DNA of 64,000 bases from Lachnospiraceae bacterium (GCA_963640185.1 CAVHXU010000010.1:14066-78065), one strand, 5' to 3'. Shown: positions 11,767-22,525, numbered from the stretch's first letter. Notes: generated by a model not told the origin, from the letters alone. A program made the numbers and translations.

Positions 11767-12696
11767 TTACTTTTTGCGGCCGAAAACGAAATAGCGGACC
11801 AGAATCTTTATCCGTTTCCACAGGGGAAGCCTGTCGTATTCATCAATCCGCTTATAGAAAAAGTCGAAGTAAAATTCAGGATCAAAGAAAGGAGACTTAC
11901 GATAGTACTCCCACCATATATCAAAATTTACACACCAGGTTTTCCATGGCTTGTTGCCGTTATAATGAACAATGCCGAATGCCAGCGCCCTATCAATCAT
12001 CTCTTTTGGCCATCCGACCTCTGCCACTGTCTTATCATTGAGCATCATCTTATTCAAATCCACAGTCAAACAGAAAGATGGATCCAGAGTTTTGATTTTT
12101 GAACCGGCAACGATGTTTATTATGTCCATTTCCTGAAATCTATATTTATTCTTTAAAAGCGACATAAAGCGGGACATTATTCCGTCAGATCTAATCAAGG
12201 CGGAATTTATTATCAGATTCCCATCATAAAAAATTTTGTTGGGATTCAGCCCCATTGAGTGGTAATACTTTCTTTGATCCGGATTATATCCGGCATCAGA
12301 AAGAACGCCGGCATAATAATATCCGGCTATATCCTCTTCATAAAACACAGACAAGTCTGACCGGAATATGACATCGACATCCGAATACAATATCTTGTCA
12401 TACTGCGGTATCAGTTCCGGTATCAGCAACCTGTAGTATGCTGCAGTCGTTATTCCCCTGATTTCAAATGCATTGTCAAACACATCCCCGACAGGCACAT
12501 AAGTAAGGCGACATCGGGGATAAATCTCCGGAAGGCGATCCAGATCCTTTCTCTCAAGCGGTTTCTTTTCAGAGTGAAGAATGAATATGTCGTAGAAGGT
12601 GTCCGGCTTGGCATTCATCATCAGAGAGGAGAGGCAGACACAGGCCGGCATAACAAGATTATTGTCAAAAGCAAAGGCGATAGGGACCGTGTTCAT
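11767..12696 (-). CDS. Glycosyltransferase family 8
   Basis: PIAFAFDNN, YYRLLIPELIP.YDKILYSDVDVI, IVHY.G.KPW. Confidence 0.9.
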   Translation of the reverse strand: MNTVPIAFAFDNNLVMPACVCLSSLMMNAKPDTFYDIFILHSEKKPLERKDLDRLPEIYPRCRLTYVPVGDVFDNAFEIRGITTAAYYRLLIPELIPQYDKILYSDVDVIFRSDLSVFYEEDIAGYYYAGVLSDAGYNPDQRKYYHSMGLNPNKIFYDGNLIINSALIRSDGIMSRFMSLLKNKYRFQEMDIINIVAGSKIKTLDPSFCLTVDLNKMMLNDKTVAEVGWPKEMIDRALAFGIVHYNGNKPWKTWCVNFDIWWEYYRKSPFFDPEFYFDFFYKRIDEYDRLPLWKRIKILVRYFVFGRKK

Positions 12697-13658
12697 CTCG
12701 AGATCTTGTTTACTATGGGAGGTAAGTTGCGGTAAGTGTCGGATTGCAGGAACTGCCTTGCATCCTCCAATGCCGAAAGCTTTATTTTCAATATGTCGAA
12801 TCTGAACTTCAACAGCGACGACAAAAGGGAAAATGTGACCAGATAAGCTATGCAGAGAATGTTATATGTCCGCATTGGCTTTGAAGTTTCCGGCTTTTGA
12901 ATGAACCGGTCCCAGAAAATCCTGCGAAACCATAAATCACTGTAAATGAGTCTTTGTTCCCGCTCGGAAGAGACCATTGAAGTCCCGGCATCAAGATGGA
13001 TGATACCGGAGTTGAAAAGAGTCAGCTGCTTATACCCCATCAGATATGCCTTGTAGAACATAATCTGGTCTTCTCCCAAGGCATAAGGCAATGTGTCGAG
13101 CCACGACTCATCTTCGAAGTGCAACGACAGAAACGTTTCTTTCCGACAAAAGAAACACGCACCGGCATTGGTTTGAGCCCAGCACGCATCTCTTTCAGGT
13201 TTGCGGTTATACGAAAAACCTGTTGTCCGCATCACTCTATATGCCCAACCGTCCCCTCGATGAGACTTCATTTTTCCGGACAATGCCATAAGTATTTTGA
13301 ATTTCAATGGCCTGTTGGCATTATTGAAGACATCGGGGGAGATTATATCTGCCTGATTCGCGGCCAGATTCAGAAACATCACTTCCACGGCATCCGACGG
13401 CAAGTAAACATCATCATCCAGAAACAGAATCCATTCAGTACGCACTTCACTGTAGGGCAAGGCTCTCTGCGCTACCATTCCTTTCTGCACATAGACATAT
13501 CTCTCCCTGCCGATCGTCTCTTCCGGGACGGGATACCCCTCCGCGATATAGACAATGATGTCTGACGGAGGCAAGGTCTGTGATTTAAGCGAGTCCAGCA
13601 GAGTCTGATATTTCTCGCCTGCCCGACCTAATGTACGGATTACTGCGGTGTATTCCAT
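12693..13658 (-). CDS. Glycosyltransferase family 2-like
   Basis: GT-A fold motifs LLDSL..QT, WILFLDDDV, GEDQ. Confidence 0.8.
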   Translation of the reverse strand: MEYTAVIRTLGRAGEKYQTLLDSLKSQTLPPSDIIVYIAEGYPVPEETIGRERYVYVQKGMVAQRALPYSEVRTEWILFLDDDVYLPSDAVEVMFLNLAANQADIISPDVFNNANRPLKFKILMALSGKMKSHRGDGWAYRVMRTTGFSYNRKPERDACWAQTNAGACFFCRKETFLSLHFEDESWLDTLPYALGEDQIMFYKAYLMGYKQLTLFNSGIIHLDAGTSMVSSEREQRLIYSDLWFRRIFWDRFIQKPETSKPMRTYNILCIAYLVTFSLLSSLLKFRFDILKIKLSALEDARQFLQSDTYRNLPPIVNKISR

Positions 13659-14656
13659 AATCGCGTCTTGATAGAGTTATTGACTCTGAACATAAACAAT
13701 CCCACGCGAGGAGGTACTGAAATTGTGAAAACAGCCTTGTTTATAATCTTATGTTTAAATGCCGTGTGAAAGACTCGGCATCTCAATGCCCGCAATTCCA
13801 AATCCCCTATCAATTTATCCCGCTCCTTGTAGTAATCGTCTTCAGCAAGAGTCTGAAGAGTCCAATGGTACATCATCACGCTATAGTATAGAAAATAGTG
13901 GCGTAGTGAATCGTCCTGCACCTTGCCCGCAGCCTCCTCGAAACGCTTGGACATTGCGAACGAGTCTCTCAGTTTTCTGACATCCGGTCTTGACGAGACT
14001 GAGACACCAGTTTTGCGATAGGCATAAAATGTTAATGGCAACTGCATACAGACCAGCTTCTCATTTGCGACAATCAGATGAATAAGGAAGTCCATATCCT
14101 CCAGAAAGACCTGATTTGCATTGAACTTCGGACAAATGGACTTTCTTAACAGGAGGAGAGGCAGAAAGAACTCACCTTGAACTGCGTTTTGAAGAAAAAC
14201 CGCTGGCTGAAGTGGACAATGGCAAAGATCCGCAGGAATAAGTCGCCCCCGAAAGGGTAAATCTTTCCCTTGGCCATCAACCGGCCTGTAGCAGCCCCTT
14301 ACTATATCAGCATTATGCTTGATTGCCGATTCATATAGTTTTCCCAGACTATCTTTTCCAATCCAATAATCGTCAGAATCACAAAACACCACCCACTCAC
14401 CTGTCACATTGTCCAGCCCGAGGTTGCGGGCGGAACTGACTCCGCCGTTGGCTTTGTGGAACACTCGGATGCGGGAGTCTTTTGCCGCATACTCGTCACA
14501 CAACACGCCGGAGCCGTCGGTGCTGCCATCGTCAATGACAAGGCATTCCCAGACTGAATAATTCTGTTTGAGAATGCTGTCTAGGCACCTCTGGAGATAT
14601 TTCACGGTATTATAGACCGGGACTATGATGGATATCTTCGGAGATTTTTCTGCCAT
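13640..14656 (-). CDS. Glycosyltransferase family 2
   Basis: MAEKSPKISIIVPVYN, DDGSTD, NGGVSSARN, DSDD; ATG at 14656 preferred over the GTG at 14665. Confidence 0.92.
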   Translation of the reverse strand: MAEKSPKISIIVPVYNTVKYLQRCLDSILKQNYSVWECLVIDDGSTDGSGVLCDEYAAKDSRIRVFHKANGGVSSARNLGLDNVTGEWVVFCDSDDYWIGKDSLGKLYESAIKHNADIVRGCYRPVDGQGKDLPFRGRLIPADLCHCPLQPAVFLQNAVQGEFFLPLLLLRKSICPKFNANQVFLEDMDFLIHLIVANEKLVCMQLPLTFYAYRKTGVSVSSRPDVRKLRDSFAMSKRFEEAAGKVQDDSLRHYFLYYSVMMYHWTLQTLAEDDYYKERDKLIGDLELRALRCRVFHTAFKHKIINKAVFTISVPPRVGLFMFRVNNSIKTRLWNTPQ

Positions 14657-14671
14657 ATATTTCACGAAAAT

Positions 14672-14702
14672 GTTGTGAAATCAAAAAGTTTACTTACCTT
14701 TG
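14672..14702 (+). promoter_or_regulatory. Bacteroidetes promoter antisense to the polysaccharide operon (cassette copy 1)
   Basis: GTTG - 19 nt - TACCTTTG (14695-14702), matching the TTTG-N19-21-TAnnTTTG consensus; identical in copy 2. Confidence 0.75.
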
Positions 14703-14707
14703 TCACG

Positions 14708-14803
14708 AAATTTTGGTCACCTTAGTGAGAGATAAGCGCCTCACCACTGGGAAAACAACAGAGCATATTTTTGAAAAAGAAAGTATTGCTCTGTTTTTGT
14801 TTT
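14708..14803 (+). ncRNA. Putative ~95-nt structured leader/sRNA ending in a terminator-like hairpin (copy 1)
   Basis: Stems GTGAG/CTCAC (14725-14744) and AACAGAGCA/TGCTCTGTT (14757-14795), then a T-tract; the same stems occur in copy 2 with different loops. Confidence 0.5.
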
Positions 14804-14856
14804 AGCGGGACGTAAATATAAGCCGCTCCTCGCTCTCAAATAACATTACTAAGTTT

Positions 14857-15006
14857 ATGACTAAAATTTCAATTATTCTCAGTGATAGAGAGCGCCTTGT
14901 TATTGATTTCAAGGAGACGCCTCGTAAAACAGTTCTTGTCAGAGGGCACTTTCGCAGTGTTGGAGACAAGAAAGTTTATGTCAGGACTCACTACCGCAAC
15001 AAGTAG
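14857..15006 (+). CDS. Small basic protein, 49 aa (MTKISIILSDRERLVIDFKETPRKTVLVRGHFRSVGDKKVYVRTHYRNK)
   Basis: ATG after an A/T-rich stretch, downstream of a promoter and followed by a terminator; frame preserved in the second copy; absent from the ORF track. Confidence 0.7.
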   Translation: MTKISIILSDRERLVIDFKETPRKTVLVRGHFRSVGDKKVYVRTHYRNK

Positions 15007-16029
15007 TCAGGCTTGAATCAGAGTTCGCTCTGATGCTGTTTTCCTCCCGCTGGAGAGCTGCCTTACAAGGCAGCTCTCTTTATTGATATTGAGAAGACTG
15101 TGTATCTTGGATATCAAAGGTACTGACAGCAAAGCATATCTTAAACGATAGGACAAACTGAAGTTCCGCTTGACATATCTATACGCATCTCTTATTACAG
15201 GAGAAGAATACCACCTTGAGGGATTTCTGTAAATATCGGTCTGACACAATGCCTTGAAATCACAGAAAATGGCTCTTTCGGCATCAGGACATCTGACACC
15301 CAGCTTCATATATGCCGGCAACAGACGTGAAATCGCATATTCCGATCGGTCGATGCTTTGTGCATATTTCTCCCAAAAACTTTCATACGCATCATAATAA
15401 TCATACACAACCAAAGAAGACGTACATATGTGTGACACACGACCAAGATATTCAAAATTGAACAGACGATCCTCACCCACCTTGATCTTTTCATCAAAGC
15501 GAAGAGCACCGACAAGTTCCCTGCTGTAATACTTTGCCCAAGGGGAACGAAGTATAGCTGTGTCTAGATACTTGTCGATCAGCCTATGACAATCCGGTTC
15601 ATCCGTCCCTGATTTCGATTTCCCTGTGTCAATGTCCGGCAACACGAAAACACTTGACATATTCGGCAATATGTCATTGAACGAGAACATCACCAGATCA
15701 CTGCAATAACTGTCAGGATCCGGCAAATCAGAGCACAAGCAGTCGTCAGAGTCCACGAACATCAGCCAGTTGCCGGATGCGTTGTCCAGCCCGACATTGC
15801 GCGCTGAGCTGCCCCCCCCATTCAATTTATGAAAGACTCGTATTCGGCTGTCTTTCGCGGCATACTCGTCACAGATGGCAGCAGAAGCATCTGTGCTGCC
15901 GTCATCCACAAGCAGCAGTTCCCAATCAGCATACGACTGGGAGATAATGTTGTCCAGACACTTGGTAAGTGTCTTTTCCGCATTGTAAACAGGAACTATG
16001 ATTGATATCTTCGGAGATTTTTCTGCCAT
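15007..16029 (-). CDS. Glycosyltransferase family 2 (contains a G8 tract)
   Basis: MAEKSPKISIIVPVYN, DDGSTD, NGGGSSARN, DSDD, GED; the last ~25 codons lie inside cassette copy 1. Confidence 0.92.
   Translation of the reverse strand: MAEKSPKISIIVPVYNAEKTLTKCLDNIISQSYADWELLLVDDGSTDASAAICDEYAAKDSRIRVFHKLNGGGSSARNVGLDNASGNWLMFVDSDDCLCSDLPDPDSYCSDLVMFSFNDILPNMSSVFVLPDIDTGKSKSGTDEPDCHRLIDKYLDTAILRSPWAKYYSRELVGALRFDEKIKVGEDRLFNFEYLGRVSHICTSSLVVYDYYDAYESFWEKYAQSIDRSEYAISRLLPAYMKLGVRCPDAERAIFCDFKALCQTDIYRNPSRWYSSPVIRDAYRYVKRNFSLSYRLRYALLSVPLISKIHSLLNINKESCLVRQLSSGRKTASERTLIQA
15053..15081 (+). terminator. Intrinsic terminator closing cassette copy 1
   Basis: GAGAGCTGCCT-TACA-AGGCAGCTCTC followed by TTT. 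Confidence 0.7.
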
Positions 16030-16044
16030 ATCTTTCACGAAAAT

Positions 16045-16075
16045 GTTGTGAAATCAAAAAGTTTACTTACCTTTG
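16045..16075 (+). promoter_or_regulatory. Bacteroidetes promoter antisense to the polysaccharide operon (cassette copy 2)
   Basis: GTTG - 19 nt - TACCTTTG(CA) at 16068-16075. Confidence 0.75.
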
Positions 16076-16080
16076 CAGCA

Positions 16081-16172
16081 GTGAATTTTACAAATAATGT
16101 GAGCTGAAAGCACTCACGTTAGAAGTCAATTACAGAGCATACATTCGTGAGAGTCTATGCTCTGTTTTGTTT
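16081..16172 (+). ncRNA. Putative structured leader/sRNA ending in a terminator-like hairpin (copy 2)
   Basis: Stems AATGTGAG/CTCACGTT (16096-16120) and ACAGAGCATA/TATGCTCTGT (16132-16165), then TTTGTTT. Confidence 0.5.
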
Positions 16173-16238
16173 AAGCGGGAATGTAGATTTCATTACACGC
16201 CGCTCTCCTGTCTCACTCAACATTATTTGTAAAGCATT

Positions 16239-16391
16239 ATGCAACAATTCACTAAAATCACTTTTGACGTGAGAGAGCGCCTTGTTATTGATTTCAAGGA
16301 GATGCCCCATAAAACAGTTCTTGTCAGAGGACACTTTCGCAGTGTTGGAGACAAGAAAGTTTATGTCAGGACTCACTACCGCAACAAGTAG
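16239..16391 (+). CDS. Small basic protein, 50 aa (MQQFTKITFDVRERLVIDFKEMPHKTVLVRGHFRSVGDKKVYVRTHYRNK)
   Basis: Paralogue of 14857-15006; the divergent N-terminus differs in length by exactly one codon and keeps an ATG. Confidence 0.7.
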   Translation: MQQFTKITFDVRERLVIDFKEMPHKTVLVRGHFRSVGDKKVYVRTHYRNK

Positions 16392-17574
16392 TCAGGCTTG
16401 AATCAGAGTTCGCTCTGATGCTGTTTTCCTCCCGCTGGAGAGTCGCTGCAAGGCGGCTCTCTTTGATTGGCAGGGACTTGTCAATAAACGCGAAGGCCTT
16501 GAGGCGTTCTGCGGCCAGAATACGCCGGAAACTCTCCTGCGACGGAAGATAAGACCGCGATGGGTCGTATTCCGACGGTGAGAGAATCATATTCCCGCGG
16601 CATTGGAACTTGTTCAGCAGGGAATCGAACCTGGCGAGCCCCCGGCCCTCATTTCCGATAATCACGAACGGCTTGGCAAAAATCAGCGAGAACACTGCGG
16701 CGTGAAACGAATCGGCCACGACAAAATCAGCGTCATAGAATGCCCGGAGCCAGTCTTCAAGAGGCGGCTGAATCCTTTCCCGGAGCGGAGCCTTCCGGTT
16801 CTCGTACTGAGTATTGCAGCGGAAAGCTTTCAGCGACCTCTCCGTGGAGATCCGGCCGATGAGATGCCGCGTGTCCTCCGTTTCATCCAGAATGTAGGCG
16901 AGAAGCCCCCCGCGAGGCTTGTCAGCGGGCGCGATCCCGGCAAGAGCCATATAATCGGACTTGTCCAGAAGCAGAGTCGGATCCGGAAGATGCAGGGCCT
17001 CGACTCCGAACAGCTCCCGACAGAGCCGGACGCCGCTGTCCTCACGCACGGACACGGCATCGAATCTTTGCAGCAGAGGAGCGAATGCGGCGATCTGCTC
17101 CGGAGTAAACTCGCATTTGTCCGTCCCGAAAGAAGCGGCATACGCCACTCTGCGGATATCGGCTTCAGTGCAGAAGTCCAAAAAGCAGCGGGCGATCATT
17201 CCGCTGCCATTGTATTCCGGCCTCCACACCTGATCGCTGCCCACGACCACCGCATCCAAACCGGACACGCACTTCGGACCCCAACGTCTGACATACCTTT
17301 TGTCAAACCTGTCATCGACAAACTTCAGCAATCTGCGGCAGGCTATTTTCCTGGAAAGTTCGTAGAACACCGGTATATCCTTGCCGACGACATATTTGAG
17401 TATCGTCCGCTTGCAGATGTTGATCAATTCTCGCCAGGGATGCTCCAGCCGGCTGTACCAGTCAAACAGCACGACCCGGTGTCCCCTGCGTTCAAGAACG
17501 GTCTTCAGGGCATAAGCCTGCAATATCCCGCCGTAATTATGCCCCAAAGGCTGTGTCAGCAGTCCTATCTTCAT
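16366..17574 (-). CDS. Polysaccharide pyruvyl transferase family protein
   Basis: MKIGLLT...NYGGILQAYAL, VGSDQVW, YAASFG, SVREDSG, DPTLLL, DSFHA; real start taken at 17574. Confidence 0.92.
   Translation of the reverse strand: MKIGLLTQPLGHNYGGILQAYALKTVLERRGHRVVLFDWYSRLEHPWRELINICKRTILKYVVGKDIPVFYELSRKIACRRLLKFVDDRFDKRYVRRWGPKCVSGLDAVVVGSDQVWRPEYNGSGMIARCFLDFCTEADIRRVAYAASFGTDKCEFTPEQIAAFAPLLQRFDAVSVREDSGVRLCRELFGVEALHLPDPTLLLDKSDYMALAGIAPADKPRGGLLAYILDETEDTRHLIGRISTERSLKAFRCNTQYENRKAPLRERIQPPLEDWLRAFYDADFVVADSFHAAVFSLIFAKPFVIIGNEGRGLARFDSLLNKFQCRGNMILSPSEYDPSRSYLPSQESFRRILAAERLKAFAFIDKSLPIKESRLAATLQREENSIRANSDSSLTTCCGSES
16438..16464 (+). terminator. Intrinsic terminator closing cassette copy 2
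   Basis: GAGAGTCGCT-GCAA-GGCGGCTCTC-TTT; GNRA loop and two G-U pairs that form only on the + strand. Confidence 0.7.
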
Positions 17575-19814: not shown

Positions 19815-21173
19815 CTATCTGGCACCTATCACCACGCATCTCCTGAGTTCCGGATCTTCGGAGAAGTCCACATCGGAGGATGTCGCGATCTCAAGCTGCC
19901 TTTCAGGTATGGCGAACTCGTTCACAAGGCAGTCTTTCACCACCTGGGCACGCTTGCGGGCCGTGATCTCCATCACGTCGCTGTTGCCTTTGCCCTTCTC
20001 GTAGTAACCGGTGATCACATAGACCTGGTCCGCGCCGAAACGTCTCACCAACTGCGAGAACAGTCCTATGTTGACCCTCGCGTCGCCGCTGAGCCTGGTG
20101 CTTGTGCCCTGGAACATAACGGTGGTGCGCGATGCCTGATACACGTCCACATCCACCGTGACGGTATCGACTATGATTTTGGGAGCCACGCCTTTGGCTA
20201 CGGCGTACTCCTGGCGTAGGCTGTCGCGGCGGGCCTGCTGCTCGGAAATCCTGTCCTGCAGGCCGGAAATGTCGGTCGTCCCGGTAATGTCCCTGTAGCT
20301 GTGCTTCGTCCTGGTGAAGCCGCGTGGATTGAACTTGTATGTGAGACCGACGGACAGCGACAGCGGGCCCTCTCCGGAGCGACCTATCCGGGCATATTCC
20401 ATATCGAAGGCGTCCTTGACCATAGTGCCCCGGACATCGAGGAAGAGATCCAGATAATCGGTGATGTAGAATGTGCTGAGGAAGCCGAGCACCCCTGAGA
20501 GGGAAGTCTCGTTGTCTTCGGTGACTATCTCCTTGTTCTTGTCCAGCGTTTTAAGTTCCTCACCGGAGGCGCGGAGCTGCTCCCTCCATTTTTTGGTATC
20601 CTTGGTCTGCCAGCTGTGCGCCACTCCGAGTCCGACATACGGGACGGCGTGATAGATCCTGTCCGCCCGGTAGCCGCCGATCAGATTGCACATATCGAGC
20701 ATCACGTCGGCGTGGACATTGAGATACGGGAATTTCTGGTGGTAGAGCCACCATCCGACTCCCTTGCCGTCGCTCTGCCGGTAGGAGACAGGCTTGGGAC
20801 TGCCGTTCTCAATCACCGCGTACGCACCTGTCTGAGTGGCTCCCCGGATGATGAAGCCGTTGTAGCTCGCCCTGAGCCCGACAGATGGGGTGAGCCATTT
20901 GCCGACGGAGAACTCGGCCACCGGCGAAATGAGATCCTTGAAATAGAGCTGTCTGTTGTGGTCTCCGAAATAGGAGGAGAAACCAGCGCCGGCGGATATG
21001 AACCAGTTGTCCCGGAATGAGCCCGCCTGATACCTGTTTCCCTCAACCTCGGATGTAATTACCTCAGTCGCATAGCCTTCTTTGTCCAGATCGCGCCCGG
21101 ACTCCGCAGTCTGGGCGAACGCCTGCGAACACAGCAGGAGCGCAGGCAATATGATGGTTACAAACTGTTTCAT
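19815..21173 (-). CDS. OmpA-family outer-membrane protein (degenerate C-terminal domain)
   Basis: Signal peptide, FRDNWFISAGAG beta-barrel, coiled coil, OmpA-like C-terminus. Confidence 0.8.
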   Translation of the reverse strand: MKQFVTIILPALLLCSQAFAQTAESGRDLDKEGYATEVITSEVEGNRYQAGSFRDNWFISAGAGFSSYFGDHNRQLYFKDLISPVAEFSVGKWLTPSVGLRASYNGFIIRGATQTGAYAVIENGSPKPVSYRQSDGKGVGWWLYHQKFPYLNVHADVMLDMCNLIGGYRADRIYHAVPYVGLGVAHSWQTKDTKKWREQLRASGEELKTLDKNKEIVTEDNETSLSGVLGFLSTFYITDYLDLFLDVRGTMVKDAFDMEYARIGRSGEGPLSLSVGLTYKFNPRGFTRTKHSYRDITGTTDISGLQDRISEQQARRDSLRQEYAVAKGVAPKIIVDTVTVDVDVYQASRTTVMFQGTSTRLSGDARVNIGLFSQLVRRFGADQVYVITGYYEKGKGNSDVMEITARKRAQVVKDCLVNEFAIPERQLEIATSSDVDFSEDPELRRCVVIGAR

Positions 21174-21175
21174 CG

Positions 21176-22477
21176 CTATTTGTCTATTGTGATGATTACT
21201 GAACGGCTGAGTGCCGGGTCGTCATAGAACATATTCTCGACACCGCCGGCATACTCCACACGGAGTCTGTCTCCGGAAATGCCGCAAGTGTTCACGAGAT
21301 ATTCATACACGGCCTGCGCACGCTCGTGGCTGAGCCTTTCGTTCAGAGCCGCCGTACCGGTGGAAGCGTCCGCATAGCCTGTCAGAAGCAGCTTCTCATC
21401 GGTGTCGTGGACAGTCTTGGCAAACACCTTGAGGTTGTAGCGGGCATCGTCCTGCAGCGTGCTGACTCCCAGAGGGAATATGACGAGGCAGGATGCCGTG
21501 AAGCGGATACGCTGCGCCATAGTCAAAGTGTCAGTAACATTCACCGTCCTGTTGCGCGCTTCCTCTATCTCGTCTTCCAGACGGTCCTGCTGGGCGATGA
21601 GGCTGTCGATCTGCTCCCTCAGTCCCCTGGTGTCCAGATCCCTGGTCGTGACCCTCTCGGTGGCGGTGCTCTGCCTGTATCCCCGCGGAGGAAGATTGAA
21701 GTTGAGCCCCACGGTCACCGCGAGGATGTTGTCACCTGATTTGCCGAACGCGGCATACTCGTGCTCGAAACTGTCTGTGAACACGGCTTCGTGGATGTCC
21801 AGCACCACATCGGTGATATGTGACACCCTGAAAGTGTTCAAGAGGCCGAAATTGCCGGAAATGCTCGTAGTGTGGTGTTTTTTGTCCTTGTCCTTGACCA
21901 TCTCGGCGTAGCTCGCCTTGTTGTAGTTGAACTGCCAGCTGTGGATGAGTCCGAGGCCGGCATAGGGGATGCAGCTCCAGATGCGGTCAGGCTTGTAGCC
22001 GGTGATGAGGTTGTTGAGATTGAACATCACATCGGCGTGAATCCCGAAATACGGGGCCTTGACGTACCAGAGCCCCTCCTTGCCCTCGATCTGCACTGGC
22101 TTGCCGTCCTTCATCTCAAGGAAGATGTTGGTGTCGTCACTGGTGGCACCCCGGGTATAAAGCCCGTTATACTGCATTCTGACGCCGATGCCCGGAATAA
22201 TCCATTTGCCCACGGCTATGTCCAGGGCCGGCGCCACCACTTTGCCGAATCCGATGCCCCTGGTGGTCGTCTGACCGTTCCCGGAGCCGAAATAGAACGA
22301 GGTACCGGCTCCGACTGTCACGAACCAGTTCTCCCGTGCCGTGCTGACCTCAGTCCTGTAGCGGTCAGTCACTTCAGTTGTTTCTTCTGTCCTGACTTTG
22401 CGTACCTGCTGGGCCTGCAGCAAGGCAGGAGCCATCAGCAACAACGCAAAGAAAGACGCACACACACGCGAATTCAT
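21176..22477 (-). CDS. OmpA-family outer-membrane protein
   Basis: NWFVTVGAG barrel; GYADASTG...NERLS.ERA peptidoglycan-binding motif. Confidence 0.88.
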   Translation of the reverse strand: MNSRVCASFFALLLMAPALLQAQQVRKVRTEETTEVTDRYRTEVSTARENWFVTVGAGTSFYFGSGNGQTTTRGIGFGKVVAPALDIAVGKWIIPGIGVRMQYNGLYTRGATSDDTNIFLEMKDGKPVQIEGKEGLWYVKAPYFGIHADVMFNLNNLITGYKPDRIWSCIPYAGLGLIHSWQFNYNKASYAEMVKDKDKKHHTTSISGNFGLLNTFRVSHITDVVLDIHEAVFTDSFEHEYAAFGKSGDNILAVTVGLNFNLPPRGYRQSTATERVTTRDLDTRGLREQIDSLIAQQDRLEDEIEEARNRTVNVTDTLTMAQRIRFTASCLVIFPLGVSTLQDDARYNLKVFAKTVHDTDEKLLLTGYADASTGTAALNERLSHERAQAVYEYLVNTCGISGDRLRVEYAGGVENMFYDDPALSRSVIITIDK

Positions 22478-22525
22478 ACCACAAATAGTTCTCACGATTA
22501 ATAATTCTCACTAAACACCAAATTG

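Follow-up and report, generated by a model that had tools for sequence, protein, structure and literature searches.

Two cassettes encoding a basic beta-hairpin microprotein behind a covarying RNA leader: a putative toxin-antitoxin unit

The locus

On the plus strand of a DNA stretch from Lachnospiraceae bacterium (GCA_963640185.1 CAVHXU010000010.1:14066-78065), which is 64,000 nucleotides (nt) long and is referred to below as the window, with positions counted from its first letter, two open reading frames (ORFs) encode very basic microproteins that share twin VRxH(F/Y)R motifs. Each ORF is located in a self-contained unit of about 400 nt, here termed a cassette, which has its own promoter, leader, internal terminator-like hairpin and final terminator. 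Then, could such a cassette be a toxin-antitoxin unit under the control of its own leader RNA? In all close homologues with enough flank, the order of elements is the promoter, the 5' segment with hairpin H1, hairpin H2 with a U-run, element d, element c, an A/T-rich start region, the ORF, element e and the terminator. The elements of the two cassettes in the window are as follows.

14673..14702, plus strand: predicted sigma-ABfr-type promoter of cassette 1, with the -33 TTG at 14673 and the -7 box TACCTTTG at 14695-14702
14707..14756, plus strand: 5' leader segment of cassette 1 with hairpin H1, from duplexes and family covariation, beginning at a putative transcription start
14757..14803, plus strand: H2 and U-run of cassette 1, by its fold a predicted leaky intrinsic terminator, which would yield an RNA of about 90 nt
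14800..14810, plus strand: element d of cassette 1, forming an 11-bp duplex (-16.7 kcal/mol) with element e at 15045-15055
14821..14856, plus strand: element c of cassette 1, the pairing partner of the near-invariant codons GAG CGC, together with the A/T-rich region around the translation start
14857..15006, plus strand: microprotein 1, 49 amino acids (aa), basic, from translation, with a C-terminal beta-hairpin by homology to an AlphaFold2 model
15007..15085, plus strand: 3' untranslated region (UTR) of cassette 1, with a small hairpin, element e (15045-15055) and the final terminator (15053-15081)
16046..16075, plus strand: predicted promoter of cassette 2, with the -33 element at 16046 and the -7 box at 16068-16075
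16080..16131, plus strand: 5' leader segment of cassette 2, from a perfect 14-bp inverted repeat and duplex energies
16132..16173, plus strand: H2 and U-run of cassette 2, a predicted leaky terminator, from an inverted repeat and its fold
16174..16238, plus strand: element d (16174-16180, pairing with 16430-16436), element c (16198-16205) and start region of cassette 2
16239..16391, plus strand: microprotein 2, 50 aa, basic, from translation, with a beta-hairpin at residues 26-49 by AlphaFold2
16392..16468, plus strand: 3' UTR of cassette 2, with a hairpin, element e (16430-16436) and the final terminator (16438-16464)

Two selected microproteins

A preliminary description of this locus claimed that both cassettes encode the microprotein, that the N-termini differ in sequence while staying in frame and sharing TKI, and that two of the four substitutions in the conserved part are synonymous, all of which agrees with the translations and the alignment. 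Neither ORF contains an internal stop. The shared part of the two cassettes, at their 3' side, comprises 171 nt with 98% identity, and its four differences inside the ORFs are ACG/ATG and CGT/CAT, which are non-synonymous, and CCT/CCC and GGG/GGA, which are synonymous. The promoter side is near-identical as well, while the leader, the start region and the first codons diverge. These two ORFs are the only copies in the assembly.

Microproteins 1 and 2 contain 13 and 12 lysine plus arginine residues, respectively, with five aspartate plus glutamate. Their best 19-residue Kyte-Doolittle means, 0.26 and 0.20, are well short of a hydrophobic helix, in line with the earlier claim that a transmembrane helix is absent, and the hydrophobic transmembrane alpha-helix of membrane-type toxins (Hok, TisB, AapA, Fst/Ldr) was found in neither window protein. 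The contrast drawn at that time with membrane-acting type I toxins holds for the peptide, but type I is not thereby excluded, since the available part of PMC8309996, which treats type I toxins as membrane helices except for two nucleases, describes SymE and RalR as cytosolic, non-membrane type I toxins acting on nucleic acids. According to AlphaFold2, the fold is a single two-stranded beta-hairpin (strands 26-36 and 39-49; predicted local distance difference test, pLDDT, 79-88), and the N-terminus is unstructured (residues 1-20, pLDDT 47-48). Of the proposed Arg/His-rich nucleic-acid-binding beta-hairpin, the hairpin is therefore borne out by the model, and nucleic-acid binding is a possibility raised by charge and fold.

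Among 93 profile hits in the fetched loci, 75 passed the threshold (E<1e-17, with ATG and stop), and the others were one intact distant member just past the cut-off, 8 damaged copies, 6 copies truncated at the end of a contig or locus, and 3 weak non-members. Since the 74 distinct homologous ORFs all keep a length of 44-51 codons, the ATG and the stop, the ORF is more than chance. The pooled Nei-Gojobori ratio of non-synonymous to synonymous substitution rates (dN/dS, Jukes-Cantor corrected) is 0.26 for the whole ORF, 0.14 for residues 27-50, the hairpin half with the twin motif, and 0.36-0.41 for the N-terminal half, all approximate values because the proportion of synonymous differences (pS), about 0.6, is close to saturation. 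Neither a ratio near 1 nor frequent frameshifts or stops, on which the preliminary description had made the coding claim depend, was found, damage being limited to 8 of 84 assessable homologues and one further homologue with a deletion. Both His residues and the last Arg are invariant across the 74 ORFs, the arginine codons of the second motif include AGA, AGG, CGG, CGA, CGT and CGC, and two codons are near-invariant (GAG in 71/74 and CGC in 64/74). On this comparative evidence, we consider with high confidence that both ORFs are real, selected genes encoding a non-membrane microprotein. A C2H2-like zinc finger was rejected, as the Cys residues, found in 46 and 67 of the 74 homologues, are absent from both window proteins and distant members have Tyr in place of His; a C-terminal arrest peptide was ruled out, because anything from 1 to 17 residues follows the hairpin, depending on the member.

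Homologues are present in 6 of 61 relatives. Among 251 same-genus genomes, 42 contain a homologue by the close profile and 63 by a wider profile, and a single genome has up to four. In named genomes, 76 loci were detected; most are in records with the title Bacteroidales, 9 are from Candidatus (Ca.) Cryptobacteroides, 3 from Ca. Egerieisoma and 3 from Muribaculaceae. Three order-wide samples gave 3/301, 5/301 and 2/301 matches, counting the window's genome, and the outside matches were weak, partial or stop-containing, so that no convincing member beyond the genus was found in these samples. The family consists of uncatalogued, very basic, hairpin-shaped microproteins of gut Bacteroidales, and the host of the window probably belongs to this group too. 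Tandem or closely spaced cassettes with different leaders also occur in other genomes (loci L045, L092, L152 and L153).

A leader matched to its own mRNA

The published -7 consensus, as given in the available part of PMC7366714, is TAnnTTTG. A perfect -7 box is present on the sense strand of 41 of the 45 non-redundant homologous cassettes; in a larger set, the full consensus was matched in 53 of the 63 cassettes scored, 157-179 nt ahead of the ATG (7 of 70 were skipped because the anchor motif was not found). H2 is followed by a U-run (at least five T within the next 8 nt) in 32/45 cassettes and has an A-run on its 5' side in 14/45; it is biased to the sense strand and looks like a sense-strand terminator. 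Rfam covariance models, at the gathering score, matched only unrelated tRNAs and plasmid RNAI in the window region and 49 loci, and no type III-like tandem pseudoknot repeats were found in the leaders. The H1 of cassette 1 (14724-14743) is identical to the H1 of the otherwise divergent L005 and L021, which points to mosaic recombination among cassettes.

In cassette 1, 14721-14738 pairs with the start region at 14831-14853 (-12.1 kcal/mol), and 14732-14753 pairs with ORF codons at 14876-14900 (-23.3 kcal/mol). In cassette 2, 16086-16112 pairs with the start region at 16209-16234 (-21.3 kcal/mol, including the perfect 14-bp inverted repeat), and 16110-16126 pairs with codons at 16260-16278 (-21.3 kcal/mol). 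When the leader:codon partners of the window are crossed, the energies become -14.4 and -6.7 kcal/mol. Duplex energies with own and foreign partners were compared by permutation across the 45 non-redundant close cassettes (Table 1), with p values that are overstated because related cassettes are not independent. The own partner is also mostly better when the swap is made with the nearest relative, least clearly for d:e.

Table 1. Duplex energies (kcal/mol) with own and foreign partners in the 45 close cassettes; the last entry counts own better/tied/worse against the nearest relative
5' end:start: own -15.0, foreign -11.4, p 0.0002; 33/2/10
Leader:codons 7-15: own -22.9, foreign -14.4, p 0.0002, own best of 45 in 22; 36/2/7
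d:e (leader:3' UTR): own -17.0, foreign -14.2, p 0.0002; 24/11/10
c:codons: own -12.8, foreign -11.0
Three control pairings: no significant difference (p 0.48, 0.46 and 0.10)

In 27 distant cassettes, the 5' end:start helix, usually from the predicted first base, again prefers its own partner (-19.1 versus -8.7 kcal/mol; own best of 27 in 20), as does d:e (-24.6 versus -21.7), while leader:codon pairing is absent there (p 0.34) and the three controls are not significant. H2 was located in these 27 by a search requiring a U-run, and its count is therefore not independent. RNAalifold recovers H2, d:e, c:codons (columns 152-157 with 241-246) and the terminator; 35 of 45 base pairs, among them 7 of the 8 in d:e, have changes on both sides. 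Compensatory changes are numerous in H2, and the d:e helix begins only downstream of H2 and not at the extreme 5' end. That the window proteins have differing N-termini is thus largely explained by their matching to differing leaders through RNA pairing, and the nearly fixed E-R-L codons by their pairing with element c. Since the helices cross each other, they would either alternate or form a pseudoknot. We conclude with high confidence that the leader RNA, as predicted by comparative folding, is a real, covarying, translation-locking structure.

Opening of the start region and the short leader RNA

The computed cost of opening the start region, in 24 of the 45 cassettes, is 13.1 kcal/mol in the nascent RNA, 6.7 once transcription is past codon ~16, 5.3 in the full-length RNA, 7.3 when the 3' end is trimmed and 4.5 when the leader is removed, all from nested folding, whose scoring does not include pseudoknots. 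The nascent-RNA cost, together with the covariation, suggests that translation would be blocked during transcription. Since trimming of the 3' end does not bring about opening (7.3), activation would proceed via refolding or loss of the 5' segment, and hok/aapA-type activation by 3' trimming was rejected, the trimmed RNA being costlier to open than the full-length one (5.3).

The predicted short RNA binds leader-less mRNA in trans with a net value of -6.4 for the own versus -1.9 for a random partner in 23 of the 45 cassettes, the own partner being better in 19/23; for the two short RNAs of the window, the own values are -7.5 and -6.3 and the crossed ones -2.8 to +3.4. On the antisense strand, perfect -7 boxes occur in 5/45 cassettes at five different positions, alternative sigma factors being outside this search, and no conserved antisense promoter was found in the 45 cassettes or in 11 plasmid and phage members. 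A positionally conserved antisense promoter was consequently rejected (5/45 scattered boxes versus 41/45 on the sense strand).

A wider hairpin family

The window proteins have no match in Pfam or NCBIfam and no direct match in PHROGs (weak rows at E 0.04-0.18 were disregarded). Nothing significant was found in the PDB by sequence (best E 0.31) or by Foldseek (best E 3.2), the ESM Atlas gave hypothetical-protein clusters only, and a single-sequence protein search returned only the two window proteins. Profile iteration led to divergent subfamilies within the same genus, one bridging member of which has weak matches (E 0.003 to 9) in 48 plasmid and 5 phage records. With a phage member as query, 120 plasmid and 50 phage records were obtained, mostly unannotated ORFs of 30-45 codons, which belong to PHROG 21154 (e.g. 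YP_009907964, from a lambdoid immunity region). The profile of PHROG 21154 is matched by four distant Bacteroidales members (E 1.7e-5 to 1.9e-3), and profile-profile alignment by hhalign gives 95.7% to the window family and 97.6-98.1% via bridging subfamilies, in exact register, these probabilities being pairwise values on a short, compositionally biased Arg/Val-rich motif. The window family would therefore be distantly linked, via related subfamilies, to PHROG 21154 of plasmids and prophages: the hairpin register is the same and the motif is retained at the protein level across phyla, whereas the leaders differ and the window proteins match the profile only indirectly. Among 11 plasmid and prophage relatives examined, five show a 5'-3' fold-back, as judged by eye. 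One prophage homologue is located at the end of the repressor operon, with no clear fold-back at that place.

No close homologue was found among catalogued plasmids or phages, and the only match of the close family in viral contigs was spurious. A distant member gave 7 loci in viral contigs, 5 of them 5'-truncated; the large gut phage contigs L170-L175 carry it, and of those examined L170 has an intact copy, the rest being 5'-truncated. In a phylum sample, the PHROG 21154 profile matched 2/251, namely one real hairpin ORF without the cassette leader and one spurious case, and E. coli K-12 MG1655 has no match to it. In addition, three proteins (P0041, P0045 and P0052) have an apparent signal peptide, a coiled coil, a bacterial SH3 domain and a Ser-rich linker, followed by the same basic hairpin.

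Comparison with known systems

Start sequestration during transcription and 5'-3' pairing are a known design of type I toxin mRNAs (PMC5416894), and zorO is activated by 5' processing (PMC11264685), as described in the available parts of these sources. By comparison with these sources, the cassettes resemble the type I systems with structurally silenced mRNA (aapA1/IsoA1, hok/Sok and the 5'-processed tisB and zorO) in having a toxin-sized ORF (<60 aa), several paralogous copies, a start sequestered on the nascent RNA and a long-range 5'-3' helix, the last two being computed features of the cassette. In contrast to these systems, the cassette peptide is a basic beta-hairpin without a transmembrane helix, the leader contains a terminator, and no antisense promoter was found. 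With SymE and RalR (PMC8309996, in part), the cassettes share a small non-membrane protein under (for the cassettes, predicted) RNA control, and action on nucleic acids would be a further likeness; however, there is no family match, and a hairpin of 24 residues would hardly be a nuclease on its own.

Type III systems (ToxIN, CptIN, TenpIN), as presented in the available part of PMC3401426, likewise have one promoter, an upstream RNA, a ratio-setting terminator and a protein gene. A terminator between the upstream RNA and the ORF is present in the cassettes as a sequence pattern, namely H2 with a U-run in 32/45. By contrast, the cassettes have no tandem pseudoknot repeats, and the window proteins, of 49-50 aa and without a Pfam or NCBIfam match, are not ToxN/CptN/TenpN-type endoribonucleases of about 20 kDa. 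The cassette leader is, moreover, complementary to the mRNA, which would imply RNA-RNA rather than RNA-protein inhibition. By analogy, the predicted arrangement would be a type III layout with a type I mechanism, and neither a membrane-type toxin nor a type III system. For the Bacteroidota, only putative type I systems are reported in the available part of PMC7366714, in whose supplements a motif search was empty, though the tables may not hold peptide sequences. The FopS small RNAs of Bacteroides thetaiotaomicron are also multi-copy, and, like the predicted short leader RNA, they have a single-stranded 5' part and a terminator hairpin; their loci are reported to lack small ORFs, and they act on other mRNAs (PMC11697453, in part). 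Membership in FopS was rejected. PMC11697453 reports the deposition of FopS in Rfam, and the cassette RNA has no Rfam match. Neither the family, nor the cassette layout, nor an antitoxin made from a leader of the same strand was described in the literature covered, which excludes most subscription journals.

Genomic context

The cassettes lie antisense among genes of a polysaccharide locus:

13640..14656, minus strand: GT2 glycosyltransferase (PF00535), starting just upstream of the cassette 1 promoter
15007..16029, minus strand: second GT2 gene, between the cassettes, whose frame crosses the cassette 1 3' UTR and stops beside the microprotein stop
16366..17574, minus strand: polysaccharide pyruvyl transferase (PF04230), whose frame crosses the cassette 2 3' UTR and last codons

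The repeated unit comprises the cassette, its promoter and the first ~100 GT2 codons, and the two GT2 proteins are 68-70% identical over the first 100 residues and 8-22% beyond; the cassette repeats may mark or promote shuffling of glycosyltransferase specificity regions. At 15007-15085 and 16366-16468, the upstream minus-strand GT2 and pyruvyl transferase genes read through the cassette terminators and 3' UTRs before they stop, as if the cassette had taken the place of their own stop codons. The minus strand of H2 (14757-14796 and 16132-16165), with its A-rich 5' flank, could terminate the opposing polysaccharide operon transcript, and such termination would be polar on the downstream glycosyltransferases. 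The guanine-plus-cytosine content is 45% in 12001-16000 of the window versus about 52-60% elsewhere, which suggests a recently acquired polysaccharide segment. Two tandem genes at 19815-22495, upstream of the polysaccharide locus, presumably encode OmpA-like outer-membrane proteins.

Elsewhere, cassettes are found beside restriction-modification genes in 11/44 cases, many of which are probably one lineage, and otherwise beside fimbrillins, transporters and housekeeping genes. In one lineage (L011, L017, L018, L025, L027, L079 and L081), the cassette lies within a type I restriction-modification operon in antisense orientation, in most cases between hsdM and hsdS. Of 42 downstream neighbours, 35 are convergent with the cassette and 7 are on its strand. 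This patchy, multi-copy, neighbour-independent distribution fits a small selfish or defensive unit spreading by recombination.

Interpretation and alternatives

A toxin-antitoxin function of some kind appears to us slightly favoured by these sequence-based results. More tentatively, we propose a putative self-contained type-I-like unit, serving addiction or defence, in which the leader locks the mRNA in cis and the terminated leader RNA silences it in trans. The 5' segment would block ribosome loading while the RNA is synthesised. Most transcripts would end at H2, giving a same-strand RNA of ~75-95 nt with the anti-start and anti-codon-7-15 sequences, whereas the read-through mRNA, stabilised by the d:e helix and the terminator, would become translatable after refolding or loss of the 5' segment. 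The short leader RNA would re-silence this mRNA in trans by strand exchange; H1 and the c:codon helix of the mRNA have homologous arms, and two toeholds could form a mobile four-way junction. Once transcription stops through locus loss, phage shut-off or stress, the short RNA would decay first and the peptide would be made; its site of action would be the cytoplasm, and its target probably RNA, DNA or ribosomes. The complete version, in which one promoter yields both the toxin mRNA and an early-terminated same-strand RNA antitoxin working by two-toehold strand exchange, for the first member of a cross-phylum beta-hairpin toxin family (Bacteroidales chromosomes, proteobacterial plasmids and prophages), is doubtful as a whole.

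Several observations weigh against the proposed unit. The 5' end:start contrast is weak in cassette 1 (own -12.1 versus crossed -10.3 and -11.9 kcal/mol), and the permutation p values are overstated, as noted above. Nested folding leaves the full-length mRNA already fairly open (5.3), so that it would take a pseudoknot to keep it locked at full length, and, unlike in aapA and hok, removal of 3' sequence does not free the start. Trans binding is weak, with a net value of -5 or better in 13/23 only; the cis pairings alone explain the covariation, and trans action would be thermodynamically allowed, weakly. The plasmid and phage relatives are apparently without the internal terminator, the prophage ones are without a clear fold-back, and their opening energies have no control. 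No integrase or transposase was found among the 75 neighbouring ORFs scanned (of 76, one duplicate being dropped). The hairpin itself may be a basic module of general use and not a toxin, because it is present where no translation lock is apparent: in L187, from another class of Bacteroidota, it forms a 36-aa ORF behind a short leader with a strong Shine-Dalgarno-like site, and similar hairpins form the C-terminal tails of SH3-domain proteins and end Archaeoglobus proteins.

One alternative is a non-toxic, signal-controlled microprotein, in which a purely cis-acting leader switch, responding to temperature, ribosome availability, a ligand or RNase processing, needs no antitoxin, and stress would release a basic nucleic-acid- or ribosome-binding peptide. 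Every covarying helix can work in cis, the full-length RNA is comparatively open, and the hairpin is found as well in genes that seem unrepressed and at the end of larger proteins; however, the patchy, multi-copy distribution in variable loci would be expected of a selfish module more than of a core stress gene, and the anti-start sequence is always upstream of the sense-biased terminator, which leaves this explanation rather unlikely in our view. It is less probable still that the cassettes are conventional type I systems, whether with an undetected antisense RNA that starts at a weak promoter or at one for an alternative sigma factor and ends at H2, or with an opposing neighbour transcript as the antisense. 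The mRNA does have the type I design, H2 has a 5' A-run in 14/45 cassettes, the downstream neighbour is mostly on the opposite strand (35/42), the polysaccharide operon of the window runs antisense through both cassettes, and seven putative type I pairs are reported for B. thetaiotaomicron (PMC7366714, in the part available); on the other side stand the absence of a positionally conserved antisense promoter in the 45 cassettes and the 11 plasmid and phage members, and the 7/42 neighbours on the same strand.

The preliminary description also suggested that the peptide binds its own leader, giving feedback or bistable switching. Binding to H2 or to the conserved GTA/GCCGCTC region could control read-through or translation, and the layout, with a basic beta-hairpin encoded 3' of a structured leader and an internal terminator, is type III-like; in addition, the conservation of a few leader bases goes further than obvious pairing accounts for. 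But the two window copies have a constant hairpin and widely divergent leaders, base pairing accounts for most of the leader conservation and, largely, for the differing N-termini, and there is no downstream gene to be switched. The suggestion has thus gained no direct support, and we regard it as improbable. Finally, the element could be non-coding, as a structured RNA or a repeat in which the reading frame is incidental. RNA structure does shape part of the peptide, the E-R-L codons and a CxxC-like stretch lying within helices, and dN/dS is higher in the N-terminal half (0.36-0.41), but the hairpin half (0.14), the serine-free switching between AGR and CGN arginine codons, the conserved start, stop and length, and the motif kept at the protein level across phyla make this very hard to sustain.

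Significance

If the peptide is toxic, the basic beta-hairpin would represent a new class of toxin, probably with a target inside the cell, and, if the proposed unit is true, an antitoxin made from the terminated leader of the toxin's own transcript would join a type I mechanism to a type III layout. Should the peptide prove harmless, the results still define a microprotein family and a structured RNA, both of them uncatalogued, the latter being a strongly covarying, predicted translation lock that would work without a Shine-Dalgarno site.

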